Positions 1 through 17,896 of a stretch of DNA of 64,000 nucleotides are shown here, one piece after another. How positions within the stretch are numbered: the first letter of the stretch is position 1; each line of letters begins with the position of its first letter. Both the position numbers and the translations under genes were made by a program. Below the pieces are notes generated by a model. The model made no database searches. It saw only the letters and a program-made list of their open reading frames with translations, and was not told where the DNA came from. This stretch comes from Limisphaerales bacterium (GTDB taxonomy: Bacteria > Verrucomicrobiota > Verrucomicrobiia > Limisphaerales > SXTU01). Location of the stretch: NCBI GenBank assembly GCA_009773355.1, contig WRPG01000003.1, forward strand, positions 105,628-169,627. The letters run 5' to 3'.

Positions 1-2406
1 AGTGAGCAGGTTGACAAATATCTCACTGGATCGTTGGTCCAGCAAGCTATCCGGCTCGACTGTTGGTAGGAAATCCTGCGGAGGTTCTTGTCCCTGTTCT
101 GATTGTTCCTTCGAGGGGTTCCGTAACTCGTCATAGATCAAGTGAAACGCCTCGTGCAGAAAGTCCAGATAGGAGGGAACATGATGCACATGCGGCACAT
201 CCGTGACGATCATTGCCAAGCGCGCGGAACCGGGCAGTTCGTCCTCTGGTTTCGCCTCCCGTTGGGCATCGGTCAGGTCCTTATTCTCAGGAGTGAGCTG
301 GAGTTTGATTGCCCAAATACCCGGTTGAAAACTGACTCGCATCACTACCCCAACTCGATCTCGATGATCGCGGGAGTTTTTAAGGACGTTGTTCCTCAAA
401 ACGCCAACGGCACACTTCAACACGGCATCGGCAGCAAAGAGCATCTGATTTAATCCACCGCGGAAATCAATGTCCATGTCCCGGTGCAACTCCTCGGGAT
501 AAGCACGGTAAAGCCGATGCTCCAGAGAGCGGTGCAACGTGCTCACGAAGTTGGCGAGCTCGCCCACCTTGGTGAAATGCAACCGTAAACGGTGCTCCTG
601 ACCCTCACCCGGTTTCGGGGGCAGCTCTTTGGTGAGCATCCGATGCAACGTTGCAAAGGCGTCGTAAAGGTCGAGAACTGTGTCGAAGACGAACGGGTTT
701 GCAAGCAATGTTGCGTAATTTTGGTAGAGGAATTCCAACGCATGAATCAAGGAAACTGGCAAAACATAACTGTTAGGTTTCGTGCGTATTTCGTGGAGAG
801 AAAGGCCGCCAGAGAAGGCAGGGTTGAGTCTTTTACCTTGCGGCAAACACTGTTTCATCCGCTCTTGATCAGACAAATCATCTGGGGCTATGCGCCACCT
901 AAGCACTGGCAGGAGCGCCTCCAAAACGCTGACGTGGCTCGCTTCCACACGAGGACAGAGAAAGTCTCCTCCATCCTTCAGTATCTTTGGGATTGGCACG
1001 CCAGCAACCGATGACAATCCAACCATATCTCTTCTGCCATGGTTCTTTTCAGTCAACTCGATGAATTTCTTCATGCAGCGTCCCACTTGACGGAAGAAGA
1101 GGCGTGTTGGGACGAGCATCTCCTGCCCATCGAAGGCGAATCCTTTGTGTTGTAACAGCAAATCTCCCTGCCCCATGGCATGCAAGTGAAACTCCCCCGA
1201 AAGCGGTGGGTGCGGTGGCACACCGAAAGACTCCTCTGCAATGCGCCTTTCCTTTTCAAGTTCCTGTTCGACAATTCGTAAAGCTTCCTCCACTTCGACC
1301 TGGTGCCCGGTTGCGGCTTGGATGACGCTGGTGGCACTGACATACCCCCGAATTGTCTGGTTTGGCTTTTCACTGTCTCTTGCGCACTTAAATGCCTCCT
1401 GCGTGACTCCGACCGTGCTGCGCGACCAACGGAATATATGGCTCGATCTCAAATCGGCCGCCTTCAACTGCAACTTCGAATCCCTGGCTACTGTTTTGGA
1501 AAACACTGGGCTCTCATCAGATCTGGTAACGTCATTTGCGAAAGCTTTGATTTGGCCGAACCATGCACTCTGGTCTAGAAGCCGCTCGAGCTTTTCGCTG
1601 CAGTCCGCATCAAACACTTTCCCGACAGTCAGGGCATGAATCCGGGCGAGTGCTGCCATAGGCACAGAGTAATTGGTCGTCACGCACCAGATCGCCAGTT
1701 CCTCTTGCCCCTGCATATCGAGGATGCAGAACTTGGTGGCACTCAGATCCTCCGCTGAGATTTCGAATGATTCCAGTCTTCCGTCCCGTGTTCTCTTGTC
1801 GAACTCCGCCATGGTGCTGCTGATTGCTGAGATGCTCGCACGCAACAGCGCCGCACCGAACAACAGCCCATGACCTAGCGAACCCCACCCGTTCAGCTTC
1901 AATCGGCTGAACATGACGAGAGGTGGCTTCTCGTCACTATGGCAGAGTCTCACCATCTCGTGTGGCTCCTTAAAGCAATCAAAGAAGTGACCTTCTTTCT
2001 TTGGCAATCCCTCCAACAACGTCTTGATTTTTGGACAAAGGCCTACACCGATTTCCTCGATTGTCGTGGAGCAGCGGGCGGTGATCTCGTGCAGCGGTTC
2101 GAAATCATCTAATAGGACGAATGAAAATGCATCCGCGTGGCCGACCGGCAGAAAATGCACTGGCTCGTAAATACCAGCTAATAGATCAGACTCTGAACCG
2201 GATTGTTTTCCTAGATGCTTTGAGACGTTTGCGGTGATTTCGTCAAACTCTTTGAACACCCGTGCAAATGGATCAGGATCAACGCCGCTTGAATGGGCGC
2301 AGCAGGATTGACGCCTCGTCCACTCCGCGTCCATTCCTGCTGCCAAGAGCAGGTAGGGATGGTAATGCAACAGTGGAGACAGTTCATTCGCGTCATTGAG
2401 TTTCAT
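1..2406 (-). CDS. Large uncharacterized protein, N-terminal 802 codons (3' end lies beyond window start); contains HExxH (HEAFH) motif
   Basis: Hand translation of the reverse strand from ATG 2406 (AGGAGG at 2415-2420, 8-nt spacer, in-frame TAG at 2419-2421) gives 802 sense codons with no stop down to nt 1. The ORF is absent from the supplied track because it runs off the edge. No family recognised and no Walker A seen. HEAFH is encoded at nt 142-156. G+C is about 50% by hand count. Confidence 0.7.
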   Translation of the reverse strand, partial: MKLNDANELSPLLHYHPYLLLAAGMDAEWTRRQSCCAHSSGVDPDPFARVFKEFDEITANVSKHLGKQSGSESDLLAGIYEPVHFLPVGHADAFSFVLLDDFEPLHEITARCSTTIEEIGVGLCPKIKTLLEGLPKKEGHFFDCFKEPHEMVRLCHSDEKPPLVMFSRLKLNGWGSLGHGLLFGAALLRASISAISSTMAEFDKRTRDGRLESFEISAEDLSATKFCILDMQGQEELAIWCVTTNYSVPMAALARIHALTVGKVFDADCSEKLERLLDQSAWFGQIKAFANDVTRSDESPVFSKTVARDSKLQLKAADLRSSHIFRWSRSTVGVTQEAFKCARDSEKPNQTIRGYVSATSVIQAATGHQVEVEEALRIVEQELEKERRIAEESFGVPPHPPLSGEFHLHAMGQGDLLLQHKGFAFDGQEMLVPTRLFFRQVGRCMKKFIELTEKNHGRRDMVGLSSVAGVPIPKILKDGGDFLCPRVEASHVSVLEALLPVLRWRIAPDDLSDQERMKQCLPQGKRLNPAFSGGLSLHEIRTKPNSYVLPVSLIHALEFLYQNYATLLANPFVFDTVLDLYDAFATLHRMLTKELPPKPGEGQEHRLRLHFTKVGELANFVSTLHRSLEHRLYRAYPEELHRDMDIDFRGGLNQMLFAADAVLKCAVGVLRNNVLKNSRDHRDRVGVVMRVSFQPGIWAIKLQLTPENKDLTDAQREAKPEDELPGSARLAMIVTDVPHVHHVPSYLDFLHEAFHLIYDELRNPSKEQSEQGQEPPQDFLPTVEPDSLLDQRSSEIFVNLLT

Positions 2407-2444
2407 CTGCACACCCTCCTATTGCCCCGTTAGGGGTGGTTAGC

Positions 2445-3167
2445 TCACCGCTTTAACCGAGCGATCTTGCCGGTGCCAATCTTTCCGTTACGCACCAACT
2501 GATCTATCCAGAACCGCGCTCGACGCGATTCCCCAAGCAACTGGTCCACATTATTCTTGCCCCACAGCGCGGCCATGCTCATGGCTGGATCAGGCACATA
2601 ATCCCGTTGCAGCCTCAACTCCGACTGTTCTTGAAACAGGGGATAGGGAACGTAGATGCGTGTCTTGGACACCTTACGCTCAGCCACCAATGCCTCAAGC
2701 CGCTTTGTTATCTCCTCGCCTATTTGTTCCGGTGCTGCCAGCCATGGGCGCAACCGTTCAGGAAAATAGGCCGAATAGCCAATCATCTGCTTCCGGTGCG
2801 GCTCCATCATGTCCATCATTGCGGCCGTCTCGGCAGACTCGTCGTCGTTGATCAGAGGGGGTAAATCTTGTGTGGAGATTGCGGCCCAAGCCAGCGAGTA
2901 GCGCAGGAGCAGCCGTTCAGCCAATCCTTCGAATGCCATGCCGTCATCGTCTTGAGGAAAAAATCCTCCAACTACTTTGGGCATATCCTCCCTGAGTTCT
3001 GCCTCCAAGCGGGCCAAGTTCACGTTGCCCCTACGGCGAAGGAATTTCTGAAACTTGAGAAATGCCCCGCTCGGTCCCTTATTTTTCTCAGCCAATTCCA
3101 TGCTCGTTGACATTTTCTTAGCAGAGAGTGTGCCCGTGAGTAAGCAGCCCGCGACATTCGTGTTCAT
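2445..3167 (-). CDS. Hypothetical protein (240 aa from ATG 3167; ORF open to 3251)
   Basis: Track ORF 2445..3251. The internal ATG at 3167 overlaps the TGA of the upstream gene (ATGA at 3164-3167), suggesting translational coupling. It lies in the low-GC island. No recognisable family. Confidence 0.55.
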   Translation of the reverse strand: MNTNVAGCLLTGTLSAKKMSTSMELAEKNKGPSGAFLKFQKFLRRRGNVNLARLEAELREDMPKVVGGFFPQDDDGMAFEGLAERLLLRYSLAWAAISTQDLPPLINDDESAETAAMMDMMEPHRKQMIGYSAYFPERLRPWLAAPEQIGEEITKRLEALVAERKVSKTRIYVPYPLFQEQSELRLQRDYVPDPAMSMAALWGKNNVDQLLGESRRARFWIDQLVRNGKIGTGKIARLKR

Positions 3168-3511
3168 ACTAGCTCCCCCGTTGGTTCTGTTCCCTGCTGT
3201 GGTGGAAACTGACTCATGAGCCAGTCGATCTGATCTTTGGACCAGAGACACGAGTATGCCGGACTCCGGTGCTTGCGGCCTTTGAAGCCAAAAAGTCCCT
3301 GGAGAACTTTTTCAACATCCAACGGCGTAATGGACACTACGTTTGCTTGCTTCATGAATTTATGGAATCGGGCTGCAGGATTGTCTGCCTCAGCGAACTC
3401 GTTTTTGACTTGAGGCATGATCGCAGTGGTAACTCGACAGAACTGAGGCCAGCTTAAGTCCTCAACACATTTACGAAAATCCTCCCATTCTGAATTTTCG
3501 TCGTCATCCAT
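3164..3511 (-). CDS. Small hypothetical protein (115 aa) sharing an N-terminal SWxQFxR...V..EF.E...PA.R module with the adjacent TIR protein
   Basis: Track ORF. Residues 16-80 align by eye with residues 12-72 of the 3550..4380 protein. Same strand with a 38-nt gap to the upstream gene. Confidence 0.55.
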   Translation of the reverse strand: MDDDENSEWEDFRKCVEDLSWPQFCRVTTAIMPQVKNEFAEADNPAARFHKFMKQANVVSITPLDVEKVLQGLFGFKGRKHRSPAYSCLWSKDQIDWLMSQFPPQQGTEPTGELV

Positions 3512-3549
3512 ATCTTGTGTTTCTCTCGTCAGATCTTGTTTTTTGCAGG

Positions 3550-4380
3550 CTAATGGGAATTCTGCAATGCATCTGCAATTCTTTGCGCAGCAGCGAGTGG
3601 CTCTTTTTCGTCAGACAGCATGATTCGAGGCAATCCCTCAAGGGTTGGCGGCATTGCTGCTTTGGGATGGATGATTACGAGGACCAGCGGCCCTTCCCCC
3701 TTCCTTCCGTAGCGGTTGACGAGCGACCTGATCTCTAGCTGTTGCCATCGGCCAATCCCGCCTGCGCCCAAAAAAATCACTCCTCCCCTACAGTTTAGGA
3801 GCGCCGCGTCCAACTGCGCCTGGTCATTGCTTCCCAAGCCAATGTCGTGAACATCCATCCAGCCATAGACGCCAACCTCTTTGAGCAACTCTCGAAATAG
3901 CAGCACTGTGGCACGATCCTCCGCATTGTAGCTCAAGAATAGGTCGAACGGAGTATTTCGAGCCTTTGTTGCGACCGGATTGGCCTTGTCGCCAGCTGAC
4001 GAGTCCTTTGGGCAGCAATTTTTCCGGAACTCCCCCAACTGCGAGGTAAGCAGGCGATGACGGTCTTCCAACTTTGCTTCCAGTTGGTTCAACCGGTCCA
4101 GCACCGCGCCAATTTCAGAGTCGGCAACCATACCCCTGCTGGGACGATATGGCGCTGTGTGGCTAAGGAAAAGTGAATTCAAAGCATCCGAAACAGCCTG
4201 TTCATCTATGCAGGCAGCAATCAACAGATTTTCCAACGTCAACACGCGGACGGCTGGTGAAACAGATTCAGAGAACTCAGAACGCACCGCCTCTAGTCCA
4301 AGTCCGCGAAGCAAACGACTGAACTGAGACCATGACATGGCCTCAATCCTCGCGGCGGTATTTGGTGACAGCACCCTCAT
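3550..4380 (-). CDS. TIR-domain protein (N-terminal helical module, coiled-coil linker, C-terminal TIR)
   Basis: The C-terminal 125 aa read FDLFLSYNAEDRATVLLFRELLKEVGVYGWMDVHDIGLGSNDQAQLDAALLNCRGGVIFLG..GIGRWQQLEIRSL. This matches the TIR pattern: a DxFxSY beta-A strand, D..L.G, a hydrophobic beta strand, and W..xE with a candidate catalytic Glu216 at nt 3733-3735. Heptad-like region AVLDRLNQLEAKLEDRHRLL at residues 92-111. Confidence 0.78.
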   Translation of the reverse strand: MRVLSPNTAARIEAMSWSQFSRLLRGLGLEAVRSEFSESVSPAVRVLTLENLLIAACIDEQAVSDALNSLFLSHTAPYRPSRGMVADSEIGAVLDRLNQLEAKLEDRHRLLTSQLGEFRKNCCPKDSSAGDKANPVATKARNTPFDLFLSYNAEDRATVLLFRELLKEVGVYGWMDVHDIGLGSNDQAQLDAALLNCRGGVIFLGAGGIGRWQQLEIRSLVNRYGRKGEGPLVLVIIHPKAAMPPTLEGLPRIMLSDEKEPLAAAQRIADALQNSH

Positions 4381-4437
4381 TCAACCAGTCGGGCGCATCG
4401 TCGCGGATCTTCAATCATCACGTCAAGCAATGGAATA

Positions 4438-5193
4438 TTAGCCGGGTGGGAGATTGTTCGGCGGCGGGGCAGTGCCGCCTCCGCCATTTTCGCCACCTTC
4501 CGCTTCTTCCCCACCATCAGAGCTGCCGCCGCCGATGCGGCGGGCGTTGAAGTAGCCGTCCACGAATAGGTCTTTCTCCTCGGTGCCGGTGATCTGGATG
4601 ATGAGGTCGTCCATGCCTTCCAGCAGCACGTCCACGGCGCGGAAGCGCGGGCGGAGGTCGGCGGTCTTGGCCTTGCGCGTGGAGCGGGCGCTGGCGGGTG
4701 CACCAATCACGTTCTCGTAGGCAGCGATCTTGGTGTTCAACGCGGTGGTGGCGGCGGCGATAATTCCATAAGGCTCGCCGGCGGGCGGGGTGCCGGTGGT
4801 GTGCGGGAGGAGCGCGGTGTGCAGGGCCTTGGCGCGGTTGAGCAGGGCGGTCTCCTGCATCTTGCGCCAGTCGCTCAGAGAGAGATCCCACGGCGCGGCA
4901 GCTTCCAGATTGTTCTGTGCGATGAACAGCAGGCGCAGCGCGCGGCCGAGCGGATGCGCGGCGTCCTCCAGCGCCTTCTCCGCCGCGTTCTGCTGGTCGG
5001 TCACGCCAGTGATCAAGGCGGACTGCGAGTCCCCGAACGCGCCAAGGTTGCCAGCGGCGGTCTCGAACTGGCCTTCGAGCGTGGTGAAGATGGTGGGTGC
5101 GAGGTTGAACCAGAGAGCCTTGTTCGTCGTGACCTGGAGGTAGGTCTTCACGGCAGAAAACATGTCCAGTTTGGCGATGAGTTCGTCTTTCAT
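4438..5193 (-). CDS. Hypothetical protein with Gly/Glu-rich C-terminal tail
   Basis: Track ORF of 251 aa with AAGGA upstream of ATG 5193. Host-like high G+C. Ends 57 nt upstream of the TIR gene on the same strand. No family recognised. Confidence 0.6.
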   Translation of the reverse strand: MKDELIAKLDMFSAVKTYLQVTTNKALWFNLAPTIFTTLEGQFETAAGNLGAFGDSQSALITGVTDQQNAAEKALEDAAHPLGRALRLLFIAQNNLEAAAPWDLSLSDWRKMQETALLNRAKALHTALLPHTTGTPPAGEPYGIIAAATTALNTKIAAYENVIGAPASARSTRKAKTADLRPRFRAVDVLLEGMDDLIIQITGTEEKDLFVDGYFNARRIGGGSSDGGEEAEGGENGGGGTAPPPNNLPPG

Positions 5194-5816: not shown

Positions 5817-7079
5817 TTAGCGCGCCTCGCGGCTGCGGACGAGCTGGAAAAACTTGCGCACGTCCGGCACCAGCAGGTCCGGCGTCTCCAGCGCGGCGAA
5901 GTGGCCGCCGCGCGGCATCTCGGTCCAGTGAATCATGATGTTCGGGCTGACGCTGCGCTCGACCCACGCGCGCGGCGGGACGTTGATTTCCTTCGGGAAC
6001 AGCGCGTAGCCCATCGGCGAGGATTTGCCGCCGCCGGTGAAGGGCGTCATCGAGGCCGGACGCGGGTGGTTGTGAGACGACTCGAAGTAGATGCGAGCGG
6101 AGGTCGGTGCGGTCTGCGTGACCCAGTAAATCATGATGTTCGTGAGCAGCTCGTCCTTGGTGAAGCTGTTGTCGAGGCTGCCGCGGTGGTCGCTCCACGC
6201 CCAGAACTTGTCCACGACCCACGCGGCGAGGCCGGCGGGCGAGTCGTTGAGGCCGTAGCCGATGGTCTGCGGGCGCGTGCCCTGAATCGCGCTGTAGCCG
6301 TAGTGGTCGGCGAGTTCCTTCCGCCGTGCCTGCATCCGGTCAATTTCCGCCTGCGTCACGCCGCGCATCGGTTCCTCGGCCGGCTGGCTGCCGCCAGGGA
6401 AGTTGTTGTGCGCGCCGATGCAGTGCGCGTTGTCGCCGCCCGCGAGCCAGCGCACGATGCCGCCGCCCCAGTCGCCGCCCTGCGCGCCGTAGCGGGCGTA
6501 GCCGAGCCGGGCCATGAGCTTCGCAAAGACCTCCGCCATGCGCTGCGAACTCCAGCCGCGCTCAACGGGCTTGCCGGAGAAGCCGAAGCCGACAAGCGAC
6601 GGGATGACGAGGTGGAAAGCGTCTTCAACCTTGCCGCCGTGCTTTTCCGGCTCGGTGAGCGGGCCGATGACCTTGGTGAACTCGACGAACGAGCCGGGCC
6701 AGCCGTGAACGAGGAGGAGCGGGAGGGCGTTGGTGTGCTTCGAGCGGATGTGCGCGAAGTGAATCTCGACACCGTCAATCGTGGTCGTGAACTGCGGGAG
6801 CTGGTTCAGCGCGCGCTCGTGCTTGCGCCAGTCGTAGGCAGTGCGCCAGTGCTCGACGAGTGACTTCAGGTAGCCGAGGTCCACGCCCATCTCCCACGAC
6901 TCGCCGGGCGCGGGCGCGGGCCAACGGGTCTTCGCGAGGCGGTCCTTCAGGTCGGCAAGCACCGCCTCGGGCACGGCGATTTTGAACGGGCGGATGGCGG
7001 CGGCGTTCGTCTGCGCGGTGGAGGGTGCGGAAGCGGCAGCGACAAACAGGCCGGCGAGGACAACAGCGCGGGGATTCAT
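5817..7079 (-). CDS. Epoxide hydrolase-like alpha/beta hydrolase (secreted)
   Basis: Signal peptide MNPRAVVLAGLFVAAASAPSTAQ. Epoxide-hydrolase N-terminal domain pattern (IRPFKI.VPE..L.DL..RL...RWP) followed by HGWPGSF.EF. Confidence 0.85.
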   Translation of the reverse strand: MNPRAVVLAGLFVAAASAPSTAQTNAAAIRPFKIAVPEAVLADLKDRLAKTRWPAPAPGESWEMGVDLGYLKSLVEHWRTAYDWRKHERALNQLPQFTTTIDGVEIHFAHIRSKHTNALPLLLVHGWPGSFVEFTKVIGPLTEPEKHGGKVEDAFHLVIPSLVGFGFSGKPVERGWSSQRMAEVFAKLMARLGYARYGAQGGDWGGGIVRWLAGGDNAHCIGAHNNFPGGSQPAEEPMRGVTQAEIDRMQARRKELADHYGYSAIQGTRPQTIGYGLNDSPAGLAAWVVDKFWAWSDHRGSLDNSFTKDELLTNIMIYWVTQTAPTSARIYFESSHNHPRPASMTPFTGGGKSSPMGYALFPKEINVPPRAWVERSVSPNIMIHWTEMPRGGHFAALETPDLLVPDVRKFFQLVRSREAR

Positions 7080-8089
7080 TTTGAAGCAGTGGGTGTGGGC
7101 TTCGTTTCAGACGCGGCATCCGGGACTTTCGACAAGCCATCGAGCACGAGCCGCATCAGCTCGCGCTCCTGAAAGCGGCGCGGAGCCTCGGCGAACTGCA
7201 CGATGAGCAGCTTGAGCGACGGCACGATGTAGAGCTTCTGCCTGCCCGCGCCGGCGGCCATCACGAGGTCGCGCGGGCGCTCGTCGGAGGCGTTGAGCCA
7301 GAACGTGAGGCCGTAGGTGGGGTGTGCCTTGGTGCCTTGAAAGCACTCGGCCAGCAGTTTTTCCGAGACGAGTTGCTTGCCGTCCCACGCGCCCTTGTTC
7401 AGCACGAACAAACCAAACTTCGCCCACTCGCGCGCGGTGAGGTGCGCGCCGGAGGGAAGATGCGGATTGCCGTCGGCGTCCTTGCGCCAGAACGACGGCT
7501 TCAGGCCGATGGGATCGAGCAGCCGGCGCTTGAAGTAGCCTTCGACCGATTCCTTGCGCGGCTCCAGCTTGCGGCGGAGCAATTCGCCGAAGCACTGAAA
7601 AGGCACCGGGCCATACTGAAACTTCTCGCCGGGCGGGAACTTCGCCTCCGCGAGCCGCACGGCGTCCTTGTAGCTGGGCACGTCGCCGACTTCCCCGCCC
7701 GCGATGCCGCTGGTGAGCGTGAGCAACTGACGGATGGTGACTTGGGACTTCCGCGCATCGCCCTGCCATTCCGTAAGCGTGTCCGCGACCTCGTCGTCGA
7801 GCTTGAGGAAACCATCCTCCACCGCCATGACCGCGAGCACGCCGACGAAACACTTCGTGCCACTCGCAAGCCGGTGCAGGTCATCCCGCCGGTGGTCGTT
7901 CAGGTATTCCTCGAAGACAAGCTGGCCGCCCCGATAGACAAGCAGCGCATGACCATTGCAGGTGCGAAGATAATCAGCGGCAGGCTGGAAGGGGCTGGGC
8001 GAAGACTTGCCCGCAGGCTCCGGCTGGGCGTGCGCAAATCCGGTCATCGCAAGCGCGACAGCAAGGCAGGTGGCAGCCAGCGGGTTCAT
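7076..8089 (-). CDS. Serine hydrolase, beta-lactamase/PBP (class C-like) family
   Basis: Signal peptide, an SxxK motif (LASGTKCF), and length typical of the family. Its stop overlaps the downstream start (ATGA at 7076-7079). Confidence 0.85.
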   Translation of the reverse strand: MNPLAATCLAVALAMTGFAHAQPEPAGKSSPSPFQPAADYLRTCNGHALLVYRGGQLVFEEYLNDHRRDDLHRLASGTKCFVGVLAVMAVEDGFLKLDDEVADTLTEWQGDARKSQVTIRQLLTLTSGIAGGEVGDVPSYKDAVRLAEAKFPPGEKFQYGPVPFQCFGELLRRKLEPRKESVEGYFKRRLLDPIGLKPSFWRKDADGNPHLPSGAHLTAREWAKFGLFVLNKGAWDGKQLVSEKLLAECFQGTKAHPTYGLTFWLNASDERPRDLVMAAGAGRQKLYIVPSLKLLIVQFAEAPRRFQERELMRLVLDGLSKVPDAASETKPTPTASK

Positions 8090-8288: not shown

Positions 8289-8825
8289 TTACTTCGCGGC
8301 CTCGGCCTTGGGAGCCTCGGCGGGCGCGGCAGCCTCACCCTCGACGAACTCGAGGATGGCCTCCTGCGCGGCGTCGCCCTGGCGTTCGCCGAGCTTGAGG
8401 ATGCGGGTGTAGCCGCCGTTGCGGTCCTTGAACTGGGGCGCGATTTTGTCGAACAGGATGTGGATCACGTCCTCGTTCTCACGCCACTTGTCGCGGGCGA
8501 CCTTGCCCTTGTGCTTGGGCGAGCCTTTGAAGTGGCTCTTCGGCTGCTGGCGGACGCGCGCGGCCACGAGGCGGCGGCAATGGACGCTCTCGGCGGTGAG
8601 GGCGGCCTTCTTTTTGTCGTCGGCGGTGGCGGCGGCCTCGATGGCGCGGTTGGCGCGACGGCCGAGGGTGACGAGCTTCTCCACCACGGGACGCAGGACT
8701 TTCGCCTTGGCGAGCGTGGTGGTGATGCGCTTGGACTTGATGAGGCTGCACACCATGTTCGCGAGCATCGCGTTGCGATGTTCGCCGGTGCGGCCGAGTT
8801 TGGCGGTGCGTTTAAGGTGGCGCAT
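8289..8825 (-). CDS. rplQ: 50S ribosomal protein L17 (with internal/C-terminal low-complexity extension)
   Basis: MRHLKRTAKLGRTGEHRNAMLANM... is a canonical L17 N-terminus. Last gene of the alpha operon. Confidence 0.95.
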   Translation of the reverse strand: MRHLKRTAKLGRTGEHRNAMLANMVCSLIKSKRITTTLAKAKVLRPVVEKLVTLGRRANRAIEAAATADDKKKAALTAESVHCRRLVAARVRQQPKSHFKGSPKHKGKVARDKWRENEDVIHILFDKIAPQFKDRNGGYTRILKLGERQGDAAQEAILEFVEGEAAAPAEAPKAEAAK

Positions 8826-8839
8826 AGGTCAACCGGTGT

Positions 8840-9853
8840 TCAGACGGCGGGCTTGTCCTCTTTCGGGGCATCCAGCAGCGACTGGTCAATGGGCATGCCC
8901 AAGCCGAGGCCGAGGGCGAGCAGCTTGTCCTTGATCTCCTGGAGGGACTTCTTGCCGAAGTTGCGATACTTCAGCATGTCGCCCTCGGACTTCATGGCGA
9001 GCTGGCCGACGGTGGTGATGTTGGCGTTGTTGAGGCAGTTGGCGGCGCGGACGGACAGCTCGATCTCGTTGACGCTCATGTTCAGGAGCTTCTTGAGCTT
9101 GCCCTGTTCCTCGTCCTGCTTGTTCTCAACCTCGGTGAACTGGACGGCGTTGCGGTCGTAGTTCACGAAGACGTCGAGGTGCTTCTGGAGAATGGCGCTG
9201 GCCTGGAGGAGCGCGTCGTCGGGCGTGATGCGCCCGTCGGTCCAAATCTCGACGACCAGACGGTCATAGTCCGTGCGCTGGCCGACGCGGGCGGCCTCGA
9301 CGGCATACTTCACGCGGGTGACCGGGGAGAAGATGGAGTCAATCGCGATGACGCCGATGGGCTGGTCGGTCTTCTTGTTTTCGTCGCCGGGGCAGAAGCC
9401 GCGGCCAAGCTTCACTTCCAGCTCCATGACGAGCTTCTTCTTCTTGTCGAGCGTGCAGATGATCTGGTCGGGGTTGACGACGGAAACATGCTGGTTCAGC
9501 TCGATGTCACCGGCGGTGACCTCGCCCTCCTTGTTGACGCTGAGGATGAGGTTCTGGACGTCGTGCGTGTCGGACTTGAGCTTGACCTTCTTGAGGTTGA
9601 GGACGATCTGGGTCACGTCCTCGACGACGCCGTCCACAATGGCGAACTCATGCTGCGCGCCCTCGATTTTCACCGAGGTGACGGCCGCGCCTTCGAGCGA
9701 GCCGAGGAGGAGGCGGCGGAGGGAGTTGCCAATGGTGTGACCGAAGCCGGTTTCAAACGGCTCGGCGCTGAACTTGGCATAGGTGGGCGTGGCGGTGGCG
9801 TCGTCTTTCTGCAACCGCTTGGGCATTTCGAACCGGGCGAGGCGGACTGGCAT
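8840..9853 (-). CDS. rpoA: DNA-directed RNA polymerase alpha subunit
   Basis: 337 aa with conserved alpha NTD/CTD sequence (FGHTIGNSLRRLLL..., ELSVRAANCL). Located between rpsD and rplQ. Confidence 0.95.
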   Translation of the reverse strand: MPVRLARFEMPKRLQKDDATATPTYAKFSAEPFETGFGHTIGNSLRRLLLGSLEGAAVTSVKIEGAQHEFAIVDGVVEDVTQIVLNLKKVKLKSDTHDVQNLILSVNKEGEVTAGDIELNQHVSVVNPDQIICTLDKKKKLVMELEVKLGRGFCPGDENKKTDQPIGVIAIDSIFSPVTRVKYAVEAARVGQRTDYDRLVVEIWTDGRITPDDALLQASAILQKHLDVFVNYDRNAVQFTEVENKQDEEQGKLKKLLNMSVNEIELSVRAANCLNNANITTVGQLAMKSEGDMLKYRNFGKKSLQEIKDKLLALGLGLGMPIDQSLLDAPKEDKPAV

Positions 9854-9957
9854 GGTGTGTTACTGTTTCTGCAATTTTAATCTGGCCGACGGCGCTATTC
9901 CCGGCGCGGGCCGGCCCATATAATTGCGTTGTGTCCCCGATTCCGGGGACGGTTGTC

Positions 9958-10569
9958 TTAGCGGGAATAAAATTCGACCACCGCCTGCTCGTTGGCGATG
10001 GGGTGGATCTCGTCGCGGGACGGAACCCGGAGGAGCGTGCCCTTGAAGGCGTCTTTGTTCAGCGCGAGCCACTCGGGCACCGCGCGGGCGGTGGAAAGCT
10101 CCAGATTCTTGGTCGCGAGCTGGCGCGAGACGCTGGAGTCCTTCACCTCGATCACGTCATTCACCTTCACGGCGTAGGATGAGATGCTGACCTTGCGGCC
10201 GTTCACCTTGATGTGGCCGTGGCCGACCATCTGGCGCGCGGCAGCGCGGGTGGTGGCGAAACCGAGGCCGAACACGAGGCTGTCGAGACGGGTCTCGAGA
10301 ATCTGGAGCATCTGCTCGCCGGTGACGCCACGGCGGCGGAGGGCCTTCTCATAGACGTTGCGGAACTGCTTCTCCATGAGGCCGTAGAAATACCGGAGCT
10401 TCTGCTTCTCCAGCAGGCCGAGGCCGTATTCCGTGGTCTTGCGGCGGGAACCCTTGGGGCCATGCACGCCGGGCGGATAGTTGCGGCGCTCAAGATACTT
10501 CGAGGGGCCGAAGATGGGGATGCCGAAACGGCGGCTGACGCGGACGCGGGGACCTGTGTAACGAGCCAT
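9958..10569 (-). CDS. rpsD: 30S ribosomal protein S4
   Basis: MARYTGPRVRVSRRFG... is a canonical S4 start. 203 aa. Confidence 0.95.
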   Translation of the reverse strand: MARYTGPRVRVSRRFGIPIFGPSKYLERRNYPPGVHGPKGSRRKTTEYGLGLLEKQKLRYFYGLMEKQFRNVYEKALRRRGVTGEQMLQILETRLDSLVFGLGFATTRAAARQMVGHGHIKVNGRKVSISSYAVKVNDVIEVKDSSVSRQLATKNLELSTARAVPEWLALNKDAFKGTLLRVPSRDEIHPIANEQAVVEFYSR

Positions 10570-10598
10570 AATGCGTGATGCTTAAAACGTGAGGAGGA

Positions 10599-11189
10599 CT
10601 AGACGCGGCGCTTCTTGCGGGGGCGGCAGCCGTTGTGCGGCACCGGGGTCACGTCCTTGATGGTGGAAATCTCCAAGCCGATGGCCTGCAACGCGCGGAT
10701 GGCGGACTCACGACCGGAGCCGGGGCCGCTGACGCGAATCTCGACCTCGCGAAGGCCGTGGGACATCGCCTGACGGGCGGCGTCCTGCGCAACCTGCTGC
10801 GCGGCGAACGCGGTGCTCTTGCGGGAGCCTTTGAAGCCCACGCGCCCGGCGCTCGACCAGCCAATCACGTTGCCCTGCATGTCCGTGATGGAGACGTTGG
10901 TGTTGTTGAAGGTGGAGAGGATGTGCGCGATGCCGACGGCGACATTCTTCGCGCCCTTGGCCTTGACGATTTTCTTGCCGGCATTCTCGTCCGCAAGCAA
11001 CTCGGCGGCGGTTGGTGCGGCAGCGGCGGCAGCCACGCCGGGAGCAGCCGGGGCGGCAGGCGCGGCGCCAGCAGTGGCGGGCGCGGCGGCTTCCTTCTTG
11101 GGCTTGGCCTCGCCAGCAGCCGCAGGGGCGGCTTCGGTGGCGGGCTTCGCTTCCTTCTTCGGGGCGGGTTTCTTCTTTTCTTCGGCCAT
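10599..11189 (-). CDS. rpsK: 30S ribosomal protein S11 with about 70-aa Ala/Pro/Lys-rich N-terminal extension
   Basis: C-terminal 125 aa are canonical S11 ([12 protein letters not shown]...[13 protein letters not shown]). The N-terminus is low complexity. Confidence 0.92.
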
Positions 11190-11212
11190 AGCGGTGAGTC
11201 AGTTGGAAATGA

Positions 11213-11605
11213 TCAGGCGGCCGCGGCGGGCTTGGCGGCGCGTTGCACACCGACGGTGCGGCGGGGGCCTTTGCGCGTGCGGGAGTTGGTCTGGGTGCGC
11301 TGGCCGCGGACGGGCAGGCTCTTCAGGTGGCGGATGCCCCGGTAGCACTTGATGGCCTGGAGGCGCTTCAAGTTCAAGCCGAGTTCGCGGCGGAGGTCGC
11401 CCTCGGTCACATACTTGCCGTCCTGAATCGCGTGGACGATCTGCGAGAGCTGGGCCTCGGTCAGGTTCTTCGCGCGGATGGACGGGTCAATCTGCGCCTT
11501 CGCGATGATCTCGCGGGCGTTGACCGGGCCGATGCCGTAGATATAGCGCAGCGCGATGTCAATGCGCTTGTCGCCGGGGATGTCCACACCAAGGATGCGT
11601 GCCAT
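11213..11605 (-). CDS. rpsM: 30S ribosomal protein S13
   Basis: [26 protein letters not shown]... is canonical S13. Confidence 0.95.
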
Positions 11606-11617
11606 AAATTCTTAAGT

Positions 11618-11731
11618 TTAACCCTGCCGTTGCTTGTGCCGCGCGTTCGTGCAGATCACGCGAATCACGTTCTTGCGCTTCACGATCTTGCAGTGCTCGC
11701 ACATTCTTTTCACCGAGGCCCTGACTTTCAT
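11618..11731 (-). CDS. rpmJ: 50S ribosomal protein L36
   Basis: Hand translation gives [37 protein letters not shown]. It is below the 60-aa track cutoff. Its ATG overlaps the infA TGA (ATGA at 11728-11731). Confidence 0.93.
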
Positions 11732-11952
11732 AAATTGTTTTCGTTCAACACCACAAACCCGTGCGACAAGTCGCCGGGCGTCAATTTCACCGTCACCATC
11801 GCGCCCATTTTCACCCGCTCCACCAGCGGAGCCTGCCGGCGCGCCACATGGCCCAGCAGCCGGTGGCCGTTCGCGAGTTCCACCCGCAACAGCCCGTTCG
11901 CCAGCGCTTCCACTACCGCGCCCTCAACGACGAAGGCAGATTCTCCGGGCAC
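11728..11952 (-). CDS. infA: Translation initiation factor IF-1 (start uncertain; GTG 11952 proposed)
   Basis: [29 protein letters not shown]...[17 protein letters not shown] matches the IF-1 S1-like fold pattern. The track ORF extends to 12039 but that part overlaps map. GTG 11952 gives 74 aa. Confidence 0.8.
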
Positions 11953-12692
11953 GTCAAAATTTCCGGCTCGGACTCGGTGATGAGCACCGTGTGCTCCATG
12001 TGCGCCGACGGCAACCCGTCCTGCGTCACCACTGTCCATTTGTCACTCAACACTTTCACCACGGCCGAACCCGCGTTCACCATCGGCTCGATGGCAATCG
12101 TCATGCCCGGCTTCAACTTCGCCGAGTTCTTGCCCGGTTCCACGAAGTTTGGCACCTGCGGATCCTCGTGGACCGTGCGCCCGACGCCGTGACCGACAAA
12201 TTCACGCACCACGCTGAAGCCGTTCGACTCAACGTAGGTCTGCACCGCCCGCGAGATGTCCACGACACGGTTCCCGGCCAACGCGCGGGAAATTCCTTCA
12301 TACAAGGCCTGCGTCGTCACATCAATCAGTTTTTGCGCCAGCAGGTTGCATCCGCCCACCGCGACGGTCTTCGCCGTGTCGCCGATGTAGCCCTGATACC
12401 GCACGCCCACATCCAGGCTGATGATGTCGCCAAACTGGATGCGGCGCGGCCCGGCCAGTCCGTGCACCACCTCGTCGTTCACCGAGATGCAGATGTTGCA
12501 CGGATACTTCCGGTAGCCGAGAAACGCGCTGGTCGCGCCGTAGTGCCGGATGCGGGACGCCGCGAAGTCATCCACTTCCTTCGTCGTCACGCCGGGCCGG
12601 ATGAACGCGCCCACGTCATTCAGCACCACCGCGGCGATCGCCCCGGCGGCCCGCATGATGTCGAGTTCGCGTTCTGTCTTTAAGACAATCAT
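11913..12692 (-). CDS. map: Methionine aminopeptidase type I
   Basis: 259 aa with conserved MAP motifs (HGIP-like [34 protein letters not shown]). Confidence 0.93.
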
Positions 12693-12813
12693 TGCCGCAA
12701 CACAGCCGAGGTCAGCACCAGTTCATCCAGCACCCACTTCCCACGTTCAAGGAACATTTCGCCAAGCGGCCAACCGCCGGGCGCTAGCCGCTTCCCACCG
12801 GAAAGCGCTCAAA

Positions 12814-14217
12814 TCAAAACCGCCCGCGCAGACGCGGCCCCTTGCCGCCCTTGCCACCGCTGAGAAAACCGTCGTAGTGCCGCATCAGGAGGTGCGACTC
12901 CATCATCCGCATCGTGTCCAGCACCACGCCGACGGTGATGAGCAGGCTCGTGCCGCCGAAAAACTGCGAGACGTAGTAGTTGATGCCGAACTTCCGCGTC
13001 ATGAACGTCGGGATGATGGCGATGACGCACAGGAAGATTGCCCCCGCCAGCGTGATGCGGCTCATCGTGTGATGCAGGAAATCGCTCGTGGCCTGGCCCG
13101 GACGCACGCCAGGGATGTAGCCGCCATACTTCTTCAGGTCGTCGGCGATTTGCACCTCATTGAACTGCGTCGCCACCCAGAAGTAAGAGAAGAACAGAAT
13201 CATCGCCGCCAGCGCCGCCATGTGGGTCCACTGATCCTCCCGGAAATTCAGCGACAACTTCACCAGCAAGTCACCCGTCGGCCCCCCCAACGACTGCCCC
13301 GCCATCCCCAGCAGCTTCTCGGGGAACATCAGTATCGCCTGCGCAAAAATGATCGGCATCACCCCCGCGTAATTCACCTTCAGCGGCATGAACGAGCTGC
13401 CGCCCTGCACCATCTTCCGACCCACCGTCCGTTGCGCATACTGCACCGGAATCTTCCGCTGCGCCTGCGTCACCGCGATCACCCCCGCGATCACCGCCAG
13501 CAGCAGCAGCACCAGCGCGACGCCGTGGAACAAATTGAACTTGGCCTGGATGCCCTCCGGCGTCACAAACATCTCCCACAGCGCCTGCACCGTCTGCGGC
13601 ACGCGGGCCAAGATGCCAATGGTGATGACCAGCGACACGCCGTTGCCGATGCCGCGCTCGCTGATTTGCTCGCCGAGCCACATCATCAGCAGCGTCCCCG
13701 TGGTGAGCAGCAAGGTGGTTTGCAGCCGGTAAGCCAGGCCGGGGTCCGCCACGAGCTGCCCGTTGAACCCCTGGAAAATCTTCTCCGGGTTCTCCCAGGC
13801 AATCGCCATCACGAAGCCCTGCCCGAGGCAAAGAATGACCGTGAGGTAGCGACCGTATTGGATGATTTTCGCGCGACCGCCCTCCTCCCGCGCCAGCTTG
13901 CTCAACTGCGGGATGACCGCGCTGAGGAGCTGGATGATGATGGTGGCGCTGATGTAGGGCATGATGCCCAGCGACCCGATGCCGCACCGCTCCAGCGCAC
14001 CGCCGGTGAACATCGAATACATCCCCAGCAGGCCGCCGCCGTCCTTTTTGGCAATCTCATCGAAGAACGCCTGCAACGCCGCGCCATCCAACCCCGGCAG
14101 CGGGAGCATCGAGACGAGGCGGCAGATGGCGAGGACGATGAGGGTGAAGAAAATCCGCGACTTCAGCTCCGGAATCTTGAAGCAGTTGACGAACGTGTTG
14201 ACGATGTTCTTGAACAT
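12814..14217 (-). CDS. secY: Preprotein translocase subunit SecY
   Basis: 467 aa polytopic membrane protein with canonical SecY sequence. Located between rplO and map. Confidence 0.95.
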   Translation of the reverse strand: MFKNIVNTFVNCFKIPELKSRIFFTLIVLAICRLVSMLPLPGLDGAALQAFFDEIAKKDGGGLLGMYSMFTGGALERCGIGSLGIMPYISATIIIQLLSAVIPQLSKLAREEGGRAKIIQYGRYLTVILCLGQGFVMAIAWENPEKIFQGFNGQLVADPGLAYRLQTTLLLTTGTLLMMWLGEQISERGIGNGVSLVITIGILARVPQTVQALWEMFVTPEGIQAKFNLFHGVALVLLLLAVIAGVIAVTQAQRKIPVQYAQRTVGRKMVQGGSSFMPLKVNYAGVMPIIFAQAILMFPEKLLGMAGQSLGGPTGDLLVKLSLNFREDQWTHMAALAAMILFFSYFWVATQFNEVQIADDLKKYGGYIPGVRPGQATSDFLHHTMSRITLAGAIFLCVIAIIPTFMTRKFGINYYVSQFFGGTSLLITVGVVLDTMRMMESHLLMRHYDGFLSGGKGGKGPRLRGRF

Positions 14218-14237
14218 GGAGCGAAGTCAGCCGCCGC

Positions 14238-14699
14238 CTAGGCTGCCTTGGGAGCCGGAGCCTCGCACGCGCCGCCGAGCGCCTCAATCTGTTTGCGGGC
14301 ACCCGCGCTGAACGCGTCCGCCACCACGGTCAGCTTCTTGGTGAGCTTGCCGTCGCCGAGAATCTTGATGCCGCCGCTGGACTTGCCGTTGGCCAGGCCG
14401 GTCTGGCGGAGCGCCGCCTCGTCCACCCGCGCGCCGTCATCGAAGGCGTTCAAACCCTCGACGTTGACGGGGATGTAGGTGGTGGCAAAGCGGGCGTTGC
14501 TGAAACCGCGCTTGGGCAGGCGGCGGAAGAGCGGCATCTGGCCGCCCTCGAACGTGGGGCGGATGGAGGAACCGCTGCGCGCGGACTGGCCCTTGCCGCC
14601 GCGGCCGGAGGTCTTGCCGTGGCCGCTGGACTCGCCCTGGCCGAGGCGCTTTTTCCGGTGCTTCGCGCCGGGACGGGGCTTCAGATCGTGGAGACGCAT
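14238..14699 (-). CDS. rplO: 50S ribosomal protein L15
   Basis: [38 protein letters not shown]... is canonical L15. Confidence 0.95.
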
Positions 14700-14722
14700 G
14701 GTGACGAAAGGTTAAGAGTGAA

Positions 14723-15403
14723 TCAGGCTGCGACGGGGGCGGCGGAAGCGCCGGCTTCCTTGCGCGCGCCACCGAGGCTGACGCCGCGGCGCTTGGCCAC
14801 GTCCTCGCGGAGGCGGAGGCTTTGCAGCGCCGCGATGGTCGCCTTGGCGACGTTCGCCGCGTTCTTGGAGCCGAGCGACTTGCTCAACACGTCCTTGATG
14901 CCGACGGTTTCGAGCACCGCGCGGACGGTCTTGCCGGCGATGAGGCCGGTGCCCGGCGAGGCGGGGCGCAGGAGCACCTTCGCGCCGTCGAAGGCGCAGT
15001 AGGCGTCGTGCGGAATCGTCGCGCCGGTGATGGACACGGAAAGCATGTTCTGCTTGGAGGCCTCGCCACCCTTTTTGATGGCCTCGGAAACCTCGGCGGC
15101 CTTGCCGAGGCCGATGCCGATCTTGCCCTTGCGGTCGCCGGTGACGACGAGCGCGCTGAAGCTGAAGCGGCGTCCGCCCTTCACGACCTTCGCGGAGCGG
15201 TTGATGAAGAGCACCTTCTCGCAGAACTCGCTGTTCGCGTTCTGCTCGGCTTCGGGACGGCGGCGCGGACCACCGCGACCGGGGCCACGGCCACGGCCAC
15301 CGCGGTCGCCACCACGCTGCTCGCTGCGTTCGGCGGGGGCGGCTGCGGCGACGGGCGCCGGCTCGGCGGCGACGGCGGGAGGATTCGTAATTGGTTCAGA
15401 CAC
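14723..15403 (-). CDS. rpsE: 30S ribosomal protein S5 with about 60-aa Ala/Pro/Arg/Gly-rich N-terminal extension and C-terminal tail
   Basis: Core is EKVLFINRSAKVVKGGRRFSFSALVVTGD... The extension is low complexity. Confidence 0.93.
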   Translation of the reverse strand: MSEPITNPPAVAAEPAPVAAAAPAERSEQRGGDRGGRGRGPGRGGPRRRPEAEQNANSEFCEKVLFINRSAKVVKGGRRFSFSALVVTGDRKGKIGIGLGKAAEVSEAIKKGGEASKQNMLSVSITGATIPHDAYCAFDGAKVLLRPASPGTGLIAGKTVRAVLETVGIKDVLSKSLGSKNAANVAKATIAALQSLRLREDVAKRRGVSLGGARKEAGASAAPVAA

Positions 15404-15426
15404 GGGTCAGGTCTCCTGTTCGCGGG

Positions 15427-15792
15427 TTAAAATTTCAGACCACTCTCGCGGGCGGCATCGGCCAGCGCCTTCACCTTGCCGTGATAACGCGCGCCGCTGC
15501 GGTCGAACACCACGGCGGAAATGCCCTTGGCCTTCGCGGCCTCGGCGGCGGCCTTGCCGACGGTGACGGCGCTCTTCACGTTCGCGGCGAGCGACGCGCG
15601 GTCGGCCTGCGCCTTCGCGCGGGTCGAGGCGGACGCGAGGGTCACGCCCTTGCCGTCGTCAATGAACTGCACATAGATGTGCTCGCCGGTGAAGCGGACG
15701 CTCATGCGGGGCCGCTCGGCGGTGCCGACGACCTTCTTGCGGATGCGCCAGATGCGCAGTTGCCGAAGCTGTTGTTTCTTCTGGGTTCTCAT
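15427..15792 (-). CDS. rplR: 50S ribosomal protein L18
   Basis: 121 aa. ...[16 protein letters not shown]...[25 protein letters not shown] is canonical L18. Confidence 0.95.
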
Positions 15793-15830
15793 TGCGTGCG
15801 GACCACGGTCTTGGCCGTGGCCTCAAATGG

Positions 15831-16367
15831 TTACTGGACCGTCTTGCCTTCCTTGCGGACGACGTGCTCGCCCACGTAGCGGACGCCCTTGCCCTTGTAA
15901 GGCTCCGGCGGGTAGTAGCCGCGAATCTCGGCGGCGACCTGACCGACGACCTGCTTGTCGGGGCCTTCGATGGTCAGCTTGGTGTTTTCATCCACCGTCA
16001 CCTTGATCTGGTCGGGGATGTTGAAAAGGATGGGATGCGAGAAACCCAGCGAGAGGTCAACCTGCTTGCCCTTCACGGCGGCCTTGAAGCCGACGCCCTG
16101 AATTTCGAGCTTCTTGACGTAGCCCTCGCTGACGCCCTTGACCATGTTGTTGATGAGCGCGCGGGTCAGACCGTGCAGCGCCTTCGCCTCGGCGTCGTCG
16201 CCCTGCCGGGCCACGATGACCTGGTCCTTCTCGACGGTCGCGGTGACGCGCGCCGGGATGGCCTGCTGCAACTTGCCCTTCGGACCCTCGACGAAAACAC
16301 TGGTGCCCCGCACCTCGACCTTGACCTTGGCCGGGATGGAAACGGGCTGTTTACCGATGCGTGACAT
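15831..16367 (-). CDS. rplF: 50S ribosomal protein L6
   Basis: MSRIGKQPVSIPAKVKVEV... is canonical L6. Confidence 0.95.
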   Translation of the reverse strand: MSRIGKQPVSIPAKVKVEVRGTSVFVEGPKGKLQQAIPARVTATVEKDQVIVARQGDDAEAKALHGLTRALINNMVKGVSEGYVKKLEIQGVGFKAAVKGKQVDLSLGFSHPILFNIPDQIKVTVDENTKLTIEGPDKQVVGQVAAEIRGYYPPEPYKGKGVRYVGEHVVRKEGKTVQ

Positions 16368-16379
16368 AAGCGTGAAAAG

Positions 16380-16769
16380 TTACCAGACGTAGCAGAGCAG
16401 CTCGCCACCGACATTCTGGCGGCGGGCCTCGTTGCCGGTCAGGATGCCGGCGGGCGTGGAAAGAATCGCGGTGCCCATGCCGTTCCGGACCCGGGGAATC
16501 TCGGTGGCCCCGACATAACGGCGCAGGCCGGGCGAACTGACGCGCTGGAGGCCGTCAATGACGCTCTTGCGGCCGGCATACTTGAGTTTGACCTTGATTT
16601 TCTTCTTGGCGACCGCGCCCTCGACGGCGACATCGCTCACGTAGCCCTCGCGCTTGAGGATGTGGGCGATGCTCTCCTTCATCTTGGAGTGCGGGATCTC
16701 AACGCTGGGCAGCAGCGCGTTGCCGGCGTTGCGGATGCGGGTCAAAAGGTCAGCAATGGGGTCGCTCAT
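16380..16769 (-). CDS. rpsH: 30S ribosomal protein S8
   Basis: MSDPIADLLTRIRNAGNA... is canonical S8. Confidence 0.95.
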   Translation of the reverse strand: MSDPIADLLTRIRNAGNALLPSVEIPHSKMKESIAHILKREGYVSDVAVEGAVAKKKIKVKLKYAGRKSVIDGLQRVSSPGLRRYVGATEIPRVRNGMGTAILSTPAGILTGNEARRQNVGGELLCYVW

Positions 16770-16771
16770 AA

Positions 16772-17041
16772 TTACCAGCTCGCTTTCGTGACACCAGGGA
16801 TCATGCCGGACAGGGCCAGCTCGCGGAACGTCAGGCGGGACACGCCGAACTTGCGGATGAAGCCGTGGCGGCGTCCCGAGACGGCGCAGCGGTTCACCAG
16901 CCGCACGGGCGAGGCGTCGCGCGGCAGCTTCGCGAGGCCGGCGTAATCTTTCTTCGCCTTCAGCTCGGCACGTTTGGCGGCGAATTTCTTCACCGTTGCC
17001 TGCTTGCGCTTGTTGCGTTCCAACCAGGAGGTCTTGGCCAT
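16772..17041 (-). CDS. rpsN: 30S ribosomal protein S14 (89 aa)
   Basis: ...[39 protein letters not shown] is a canonical S14 C-terminus. Confidence 0.95.
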
Positions 17042-17058
17042 AGTCTGGGTTCGTTAAA

Positions 17059-17601: not shown

Positions 17602-17606
17602 ACGCG

Positions 17607-17894
17607 TCAGGCTTTGGCTGGCTCGGCGGCGGGCGTGCCGCGCTTGGCGGCGCGGGCGTCGAACTTGGCGGCGAGCATCACGTTCGAGACGTGGATGGGG
17701 CCTTCGCGTTCGAGGATCGCGCCGTTGGGGTTCTGCTGGTTCTTGCGGACGTGCTTCTTCTGGATGTTCACGCCCTCGACAAAGACGCGCTCGGTCTTGG
17801 TCACCACGGAGATGATCTTGCCGCGCTTGCCTTTGTCCTTGCCGGTGATGACGACCACTTCGTCCTCACGTTTCACATGAAGTTTGCTGGGCAT
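17607..17894 (-). CDS. rplX: 50S ribosomal protein L24
   Basis: KLHVKREDEVVVITGKDKGKRGKI... shows the KOW motif of L24. Confidence 0.95.
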   Translation of the reverse strand: MPSKLHVKREDEVVVITGKDKGKRGKIISVVTKTERVFVEGVNIQKKHVRKNQQNPNGAILEREGPIHVSNVMLAAKFDARAAKRGTPAAEPAKA

Positions 17895-17896
17895 AA

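Follow-up and report, generated by a model that had tools for sequence, protein, structure and literature searches.

The left end of the 64,000-nucleotide (nt) stretch of Limisphaerales DNA analyzed here (contig WRPG01000003.1, positions 105,628–169,627; hereafter, the window) raises the question of whether its first 2406 nt, for which a track of open reading frames (ORFs) lists no long frame, encode a protein, and, if so, what this protein does in an operon with a gene for a TIR-domain protein. The frame is a real gene. It encodes the N-terminal part of a protein of ~1100 amino acids (aa) that, together with the product of a shorter gene directly upstream (hereafter, the mid gene), forms a core retained in independent contigs, with exchangeable effector-type genes at its side. 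With slightly better than even confidence, we take the large protein for the constant subunit of a modular conflict system that has not yet been described and is most likely directed against phages; in it, the protein would serve as a sensor or regulator carrying an HExxH…Glu metal site. For this reading we infer metal binding, peptidase activity, the direction of signaling, and the role in defense.

The large gene at the window edge

Translation of positions 2406→1 of the window (minus strand) yields 802 sense codons and zero stops, starting with MKLNDANELSPLLHYHPYLLLAAGMDAEWTRR and ending with ...SSEIFVNLLT. A preliminary description of the window, made from the sequence alone, had followed a stop-free frame from ATG 2406 to nt 1, and both of its terminal peptides are reproduced exactly by this translation. 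The absence of the frame from the ORF track is confirmed as well, the ORFs listed in the region being short and overlapping; the large frame is unlisted because the ORF tool omits frames that run off the end of the source, which is a convention of the tool and not biology. Tracks that drop edge-truncated ORFs can thus hide the largest gene of an operon. Assuming a stop frequency of ~0.042 per codon at the local GC content of ~0.53, we estimate the chance of an 802-codon open frame at ~1e-15. The frame and the site preceding it are located as follows:

1–2406, minus strand: large gene, N-terminal 802 codons (72%) of 1116 aa, the other 314 codons lying past the left edge
2415–2420, minus strand: AGGAGG ribosome-binding site, with an 8-nt spacer before ATG 2406

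The complete gene is found on contig L035 (ENA ERZ27284375, 106 kb), one of eight contigs on which the 240-aa mid protein is matched exactly. L035 shows 100% identity with the window over the 5300 nt compared and carries, at 10762–14112, a complete, uninterrupted large gene of 1116 aa, residues 1–802 of which coincide with the window translation. The leftward extension suggested in the preliminary description was achieved via this contig, with the frame intact to 1116 aa; the initial judgment that the frame is a real, edge-truncated gene holds, given the completion on the identical contig, the presence of homologues, and the ribosome-binding site. Elsewhere, the large gene appears as two adjacent ORFs at L025 6557–9082 and L022 2353–4539, and these split genes are likely pseudogenized copies or assembly frameshifts.

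The number of recovered homologues depends on the search. A word-index search finds only three, with 40–58% identity and lengths of 1096–1247 aa, and the same type of search with a 110-sequence profile finds 5 proteins only; an exhaustive profile search yields 344 clusters (50%-identity representatives) at E<=1e-3, 225 of them at E<=1e-30, with lengths mostly of 1000–1150 aa. Second ORFs of ~1070–1090 aa in L017 and L031 were considered as family members and rejected on comparison. The window protein, which has no transmembrane-like segment and is predicted to be soluble, gives zero matches in Pfam, NCBIfam, PADLOC, and the PDB sequences, and so do its full-length form and diverse relatives; for the hidden Markov models (HMMs) of PADLOC-DB v2.0.0, zero families were matched by the window protein, the full-length form, and five diverse relatives. 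Literature searches, which also covered Kaur et al. (2020) and Yirmiya et al. (2025), turned up no account of the large-protein family.

Conserved residues and predicted structure

Conservation was counted in a MAFFT alignment of 125 near-full-length members of the family. The sites that stand out are, in window numbering:

142–156, minus strand: HEAFH (H751, E752, H755), the most conserved motif of the family, on a predicted alpha-helix
22–24, minus strand: E795, candidate third metal ligand, 40 residues past H755, on the next long helix
181–201, minus strand: DVPHVHH (D736–H742), conserved, where the beta-strand preceding the HExxH helix ends
2104–2133, minus strand: D92…D100-D101 acidic cluster (GHAD...LLDDF), in the beta2–beta3 hairpin and at the strand end of the first ferredoxin-like unit

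The HEAFH motif, noted earlier at nt 142–156, is confirmed there as residues 751–755, and the proposed check of its conservation gives a clear result. The first His is present in 124/125 members, Glu in 122/125 (with Asp in the other three), and the second His in 124/125, and the motif is retained in a relative of 35% identity from a Verrucomicrobiaceae metagenome-assembled genome (L003). Judged by this conservation, the HExxH is not a chance motif. The preliminary description had expected a third ligand, if any, outside the window; this proved wrong, since the family-conserved E795 is encoded inside it. The downstream Glu is found in 120/125 members and is replaced by Asp in the remaining five; it follows the second His at a distance of 20–90 residues, mostly 26–52. 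Such variable spacing is the expected pattern for a loop joining two helices, and its range equals that seen in gluzincins. The absence of a metzincin motif, also claimed earlier, is borne out: the window sequence, HEAFHLIYDELR, has no Gly/His at +3/+6 as in HExxHxxGxxH, and the family consensus is HExFHLxxD.

H739 of the D-V-P-H block, ~12 residues upstream of the HExxH, is conserved in 110/125 members. In the acidic cluster, D92, D100, and D101 are conserved in 118, 122, and 109 of 125 members, respectively, and may form a second functional site. Further near-invariant residues are N245, H323, G367-H368, G412, D415, D579, D582, R631, D647, and R649, and a near-invariant C-terminal P..R...K..W...R block lies past the window edge. 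The most conserved zones of the large protein are the N-terminal DD region, residues 521–640, the HExxH and Glu helices, and the last ~50 residues, while residues ~800–1040 are the most variable and gap-rich.

The structure was predicted with AlphaFold2 for a full-length homologue, P0001, using a 65-sequence alignment; a prediction from a four-sequence alignment, with a predicted local distance difference test score (pLDDT) of 36, was discarded. The retained model has pLDDT 88.5 and a predicted template modeling score (pTM) of 0.93. In P0001 numbering, residues ~15–440 form repeated beta-alpha-beta-beta-alpha-beta (ferredoxin-like) units, and residues ~508–650 are helices; then come strands 657–664, 670–672, and 696–703, the confidently predicted helix 710–729, which carries the HExxH, helix 758–776 with the downstream Glu (E765), and an all-helical region to residue 1086. 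The order of three-strand sheet, HExxH helix, and Glu helix suggests, as far as the secondary structure of the model goes, a gluzincin-like, minimal zincin layout. The only confident Foldseek match in PDB is chlorite dismutase 4m09_E (probability 1.00, E 2e-3, TM 0.51 on the target, 264 columns), and a weaker match is DyP peroxidase 6yr4 (probability 0.44). Both are tandem ferredoxin-like barrels and presumably match the N-terminal half of the model.

The cassette, its partners, and its island

The window cassette consists of four genes, all on the minus strand: TIR, small ORF, mid gene, and large gene. The three upstream of the large gene are:

3550–4380, minus strand: TIR-domain protein, 276 aa from ATG 4380 (262 aa according to gene callers), Pfam TIR_2, E 7e-12
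3164–3511, minus strand: small ORF, 115 aa, called as a gene in L037
2445–3167, minus strand: mid gene, 240 aa, without a known domain; gene calls on 8 contigs give it this length

The mid start, ATG 3167, overlaps the stop of the small ORF (ATGA), and 38 nt separate the mid gene from the large gene. The contigs of all close homologues keep the order TIR / small / ~230 aa / ~1100 aa; the large gene had been called the largest component of the TIR operon, and the recurrence of this order on independent contigs agrees with that. The TIR protein is the predicted effector of the cassette. It comprises an N-terminal module of ~100 aa followed by the C-terminal TIR_2 domain, and weakly matches the ThsB / PDC-S66 TIR models. 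The small ORF and the N-terminal ~70 residues of the TIR protein (window 4170–4345, minus strand) have a module in common, with 30% identity across ~60 residues and E 2e-7, and the same paralogy is seen in L001 (E 4e-6); the common module has no Pfam match and may be an adaptor or decoy domain.

Genomic context was surveyed in ~25 non-redundant loci. In nearly all of them, a mid gene encoding 120–330 aa lies directly upstream of the large gene, the gap between the two being −8 to +37 nt in most loci. The position next to this mid+large core varies; the partner is located upstream or, rarely, downstream. The partners are:

TIR_2 protein: window/L035, L001, P0002 contig, L029
CAP12/Pycsar-type TIR protein: L026
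SIR2_2 protein: L010
HD-CE protein: L007–9
Calcineurin-like phosphoesterase (Metallophos), downstream: L003
KAP NTPase with a 240–300-aa protein: L004–6, L011, L013
TCAD9-domain protein: L028
Several unannotated partner families: various loci

The mid+large core is thus constant and the effector-type partners are interchangeable across independent contigs, as in modular systems, and TIR is just one among several interchangeable partners of the large protein.

Two loci have further genes adjoining the cassette. In L029 (3191–6356), the gene directly upstream of the TIR / mid / large cassette encodes a ThsA-like SIR2-STALD (SLOG) protein; the cassette either adjoins a type I Thoeris system here, or its TIR signals to a ThsA-type effector in that lineage. 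In L004/L005, the region at 11300–19195, downstream of a KAP-type cassette, contains integrase fragments, a group II intron reverse transcriptase, and IS21-type transposition genes, as well as a Trypco1 and trypsin-like pair, and looks like a mobile-element-rich conflict island.

In the window strain, the cassette lies in a low-GC island of ~7 kb (~52–57% GC vs 62–70% in the flanks), a few kb (~4 kb) downstream of the rpoA–rplQ ribosomal cluster:

1–4400, unstranded: right-hand part of the low-GC island (~53% GC vs 62–68% in the flanks), with ~3.6 kb more past the window edge in L035

L001 stems from a closely related strain in which the insertion occupies the same site. When the window strain is compared with L001, the flanking DNA is ~97% identical and the flanking proteins are 88–100% identical, whereas identity within the cassette is 31% for TIR, 50% for the mid protein, and 56% for the large protein; two other proteins of the island, cyclase-like and ThsB-type TIR (see below), show 71% and 87% identity, respectively. 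Such a concentration of divergence on the cassette is what one would expect of an immune locus undergoing allelic replacement or diversifying selection.

The cyclase-like and TIR genes form a convergent pair at L035 14136–15806, just past the left edge of the window, and at L001 5396–7046. The cyclase-like protein, of 395 aa, weakly matches class III nucleotide cyclases (Guanylate_cyc, E 2.8e-5; in L001, E 5.8e-8), and the TIR protein, of 153 aa, is ThsB-type. The pair may be a second, cyclase-plus-TIR defense module; its assignment to Pucsar was rejected, as the Pucsar effector is a CNBD-TIR fusion and the protein here is a bare 153-aa ThsB-type TIR. On its high-GC side, the island boundary is occupied by a 251-aa ORF (window 4438–5193, minus strand) that lacks known domains and ends in a Gly/Glu/Pro-rich tail; 34 aa at its C-terminus are unchanged in the L001 strain, and therefore it marks the conserved insertion site. 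An epoxide hydrolase gene (5817–7079) and a beta-lactamase-fold gene (7076–8089) lie between the island and the ribosomal cluster, which, by comparison with L035, comprises rplQ, rpoA, rpsD, rpsK, and rpsM at 8289–11605 (minus strand). PSCyt1/PSCyt2/PSD1 and DUF1501 genes flank the island at L035 16175–20723; taken with the Verrucomicrobiaceae relative (L003), they point to a source genome of Planctomycetota/Verrucomicrobiota type. Farther away, ARAGORN reports a 91-nt tRNA-like element at 17612–17702 (plus strand) with a two-base anticodon, 'gg', given as undetermined; Rfam models at gathering thresholds match nothing anywhere in the window, and the element could be spurious or a degenerate tRNA.

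Proposed function and known systems

In the reading favored here, the core is a two-gene unit, in which a fast-evolving protein of 120–330 aa is translationally coupled to the soluble ~1100-aa protein; next to it stands one of several exchangeable effector-type genes, for a TIR protein in the window and elsewhere for another TIR type or a SIR2-like, HD-CE, calcineurin-like phosphoesterase, or KAP NTPase protein. In the AlphaFold2 model, the large protein has four parts: the N-terminal half, where ferredoxin-like units carry a cluster of conserved Asp and His residues; a helical segment of high conservation; the three-strand sheet with the HExxH and Glu helices; and a helical region that varies across the family and ends in a conserved C-terminal helix. 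The HExxH and the Glu would coordinate a metal, probably zinc, for catalysis; the variable helical region would serve to recognize the trigger or confer target specificity. Upon infection, the large protein, as sensor/regulator, would switch on the TIR NADase; the simplest way to do so would be to cleave an inhibitory or adaptor module, candidate substrates being the N-terminal module of TIR and its free paralogue, the small ORF product.

A stronger claim, which we entertain as possible but doubtful, is that the ~1100-aa protein represents a new class of immune hubs, that is, a divergent zincin-like sensor-protease that licenses swappable NADase, nuclease, phosphoesterase, and NTPase effectors by proteolysis, with a fast-evolving small partner and without an NTPase switch or a nucleotide messenger. 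If so, it would define a previously unrecognized, widespread defense system of environmental bacteria (Verrucomicrobiota/Planctomycetota-type genomes and others).

Several results weigh against the favored reading of a sensor or regulator with a metal site. Foldseek comparison of the whole P0001 model with PDB gives no hit at E<1e-3 and no zincin at E<1, the best peptidase being the M1 F3 factor 3q7j at rank 37 with E 1.6; comparison with BFVD gives nothing significant, and a profile of the HExxH region (37 members) finds no peptidase in the PDB sequences or Pfam. The mid proteins show no BLAST or HMM link as one family beyond the closest clade, and about half of the partner genes are without a recognizable domain. 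For L003, the idea that the large protein, in its C-terminal extension, and the metallophosphatase partner, at its N-terminus, carry a common adaptor module is unsupported (E 0.46). No relatives of the family were found in sequenced plasmids, phages, or IMG/VR contigs, and the assignment to defense follows guilt by association, with no match to a curated defense model. KAP NTPases are usually seen as sensors or switches and not as effectors, which blurs the picture of a constant sensor with a variable effector.

These results also bear on the zincin-like nature of the HExxH suggested in the preliminary description: the motif is conserved, predicted to be helical, and followed by a Glu, but neither Foldseek nor profile searches return a zincin. 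The motif features of zincins are thus recognizable in the sequence and the model, with fold and family membership unproven; the HExxH and Glu look like a zinc site, possibly that of a protease, although protease activity is unproven.

Among the alternatives, the one that survives best, albeit unlikely in our view, is that the HExxH…Glu binds a metal and is not a peptidase, being the site of another hydrolase or a structural/regulatory site, with the main chemistry residing in the N-terminal ferredoxin-like units; there, the cluster of D92/D100/D101, N245, H323, H368, and D415 could be a nucleotidyl-transfer or nuclease-type site. This would agree with the lack of a zincin match by fold or profile. 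The N-terminal acidic and His residues are as conserved as the HExxH and are placed at strand ends and in the beta2–beta3 hairpin of the beta-alpha-beta-beta-alpha-beta unit, and palm-type enzymes carry their catalytic Asp at just such strand ends and hairpins. However, Foldseek finds no polymerase, cyclase, or primase, the N-terminal half confidently matching chlorite dismutase and DyP barrels only, and the combination of an HExxH on a helix, a Glu on the following helix, and a preceding sheet is a specific gluzincin signature.

Less probable is reversed signaling, with the large protein as a toxic effector (e.g., a protease acting on host proteins) and the TIR or other partner as a sensor or signal generator. 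In Thoeris, ThsB TIRs make a nucleotide signal that activates the effector; the window TIR weakly matches ThsB models, and the ThsA-like SIR2-STALD gene of L029 adjoins a TIR-mid-large cassette. As outlined in PMC13243611, the TIR protein of type IV Thoeris generates a signal, and the effector paired with it is a caspase-like protease. On the other hand, the SIR2-like, HD-CE, metallophosphatase, and KAP NTPase partners are not known signal generators; TIR, SIR2, and HD are classic interchangeable effectors; and no SLOG, Macro, SAVED, CARF, or CNBD domain was found in the large protein. Generally, in modular systems, the constant component senses and the variable one kills.

It is quite improbable that the cassette is not immune at all but an addiction/toxin-antitoxin-like, inter-bacterial conflict, or regulatory module riding variable islands. 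Curated defense models are unmatched and many partners are unannotated, as this alternative would have it; nevertheless, the partner repertoire, the island setting, the cassette-specific divergence, and the defense-type neighbors found across loci (the cyclase-like and ThsB-TIR pair, the ThsA-like SIR2-STALD gene, Trypco1/trypsin, and transposases) are typical of defense loci. Finally, that the frame is a non-coding or decayed stretch lacking stops by chance, for which nothing speaks except its absence from the ORF list, is already refuted by the estimate of ~1e-15, the consensus ribosome-binding site, hundreds of homologues, the complete 1116-aa gene on an identical contig, and the confident fold prediction.

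If the favored reading, that of a constant sensor or regulator in a modular system, is true, a family of hundreds of clusters, unannotated in Pfam, NCBIfam, PADLOC, and PDB, would be the signature of a new modular immune system; H751/E752/H755/E795 would offer a concrete catalytic hypothesis; and the swapping of effectors would be a natural experiment on how one sensor scaffold controls chemically unrelated effectors.

Compared with known proteins, the large protein resembles gluzincins (clan MA(E): thermolysin-like, M1, M3, and M48/M56 'minigluzincins') in the HExxH on a helix, the Glu on a later helix 20–90 residues on, and the preceding small beta-sheet, but differs from them in showing no profile or Foldseek similarity and in having the motif inside a multi-domain protein of 1100 aa, the N-terminal half of which is ferredoxin-like. 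We know of no gluzincin counterpart of the additional conserved DVPH, LDLYD, DxDFRGG, and C-terminal R/K/W elements. The tandem beta-alpha-beta-beta-alpha-beta units at residues ~15–440 are similar to the chlorite dismutase / DyP (CDE) barrel; with 12–13% identity and no profile match, this is a resemblance of fold only. CapP, an ImmA/IrrE-like protein, is a small M78-type HExxH metallopeptidase that regulates CBASS by cleaving a transcriptional repressor. The large protein would share with CapP the role of a zinc metallopeptidase as a switch of an immune operon, a role that is putative here; unlike CapP, it is ten times larger, unrelated in sequence, and has no adjoining helix-turn-helix repressor.

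The pairing of a TIR with a protease, initially described as unusual, is only partly so, since type IV Thoeris provides a precedent (PMC13243611). The cassette is like type IV Thoeris in that a TIR, weakly ThsB-type in the window, is encoded with a putative protease in a defense-island setting, but it has a different class of putative protease and two extra small genes. Moreover, a SIR2-like, HD, phosphoesterase, or KAP NTPase partner can take the place of its TIR, which misfits the TIR-signaling logic of Thoeris. TIR_2 is present in the window cassette, with no known signal-binding domain in the cassette proteins, and only L029 shows a ThsA-like gene.

Lamassu, Avs/STAND, CBASS, and the nucleoside triphosphate (NTP)-dependent 'ternary' systems (Kaur et al., 2020; PMC7159879) differ from the cassette in that its core lacks any SMC, STAND, CD-NTase, or vWA/MoxR module. 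PMC7159879 mentions metallopeptidases in two roles only, as effector domains that are rare and as parts of FxSxx-COOH peptide-processing modules, with no ~1100-aa HExxH core. The similarities of the cassette to these modular systems are a constant large component, swappable TIR / SIR2 / HD / phosphoesterase effectors, the location in islands, and rapid divergence, and one cassette locus (L028) contains a TCAD9 protein. A modular, effector-swapping, defense-like system built on a novel core protein family is the best-supported reading of the cassette.

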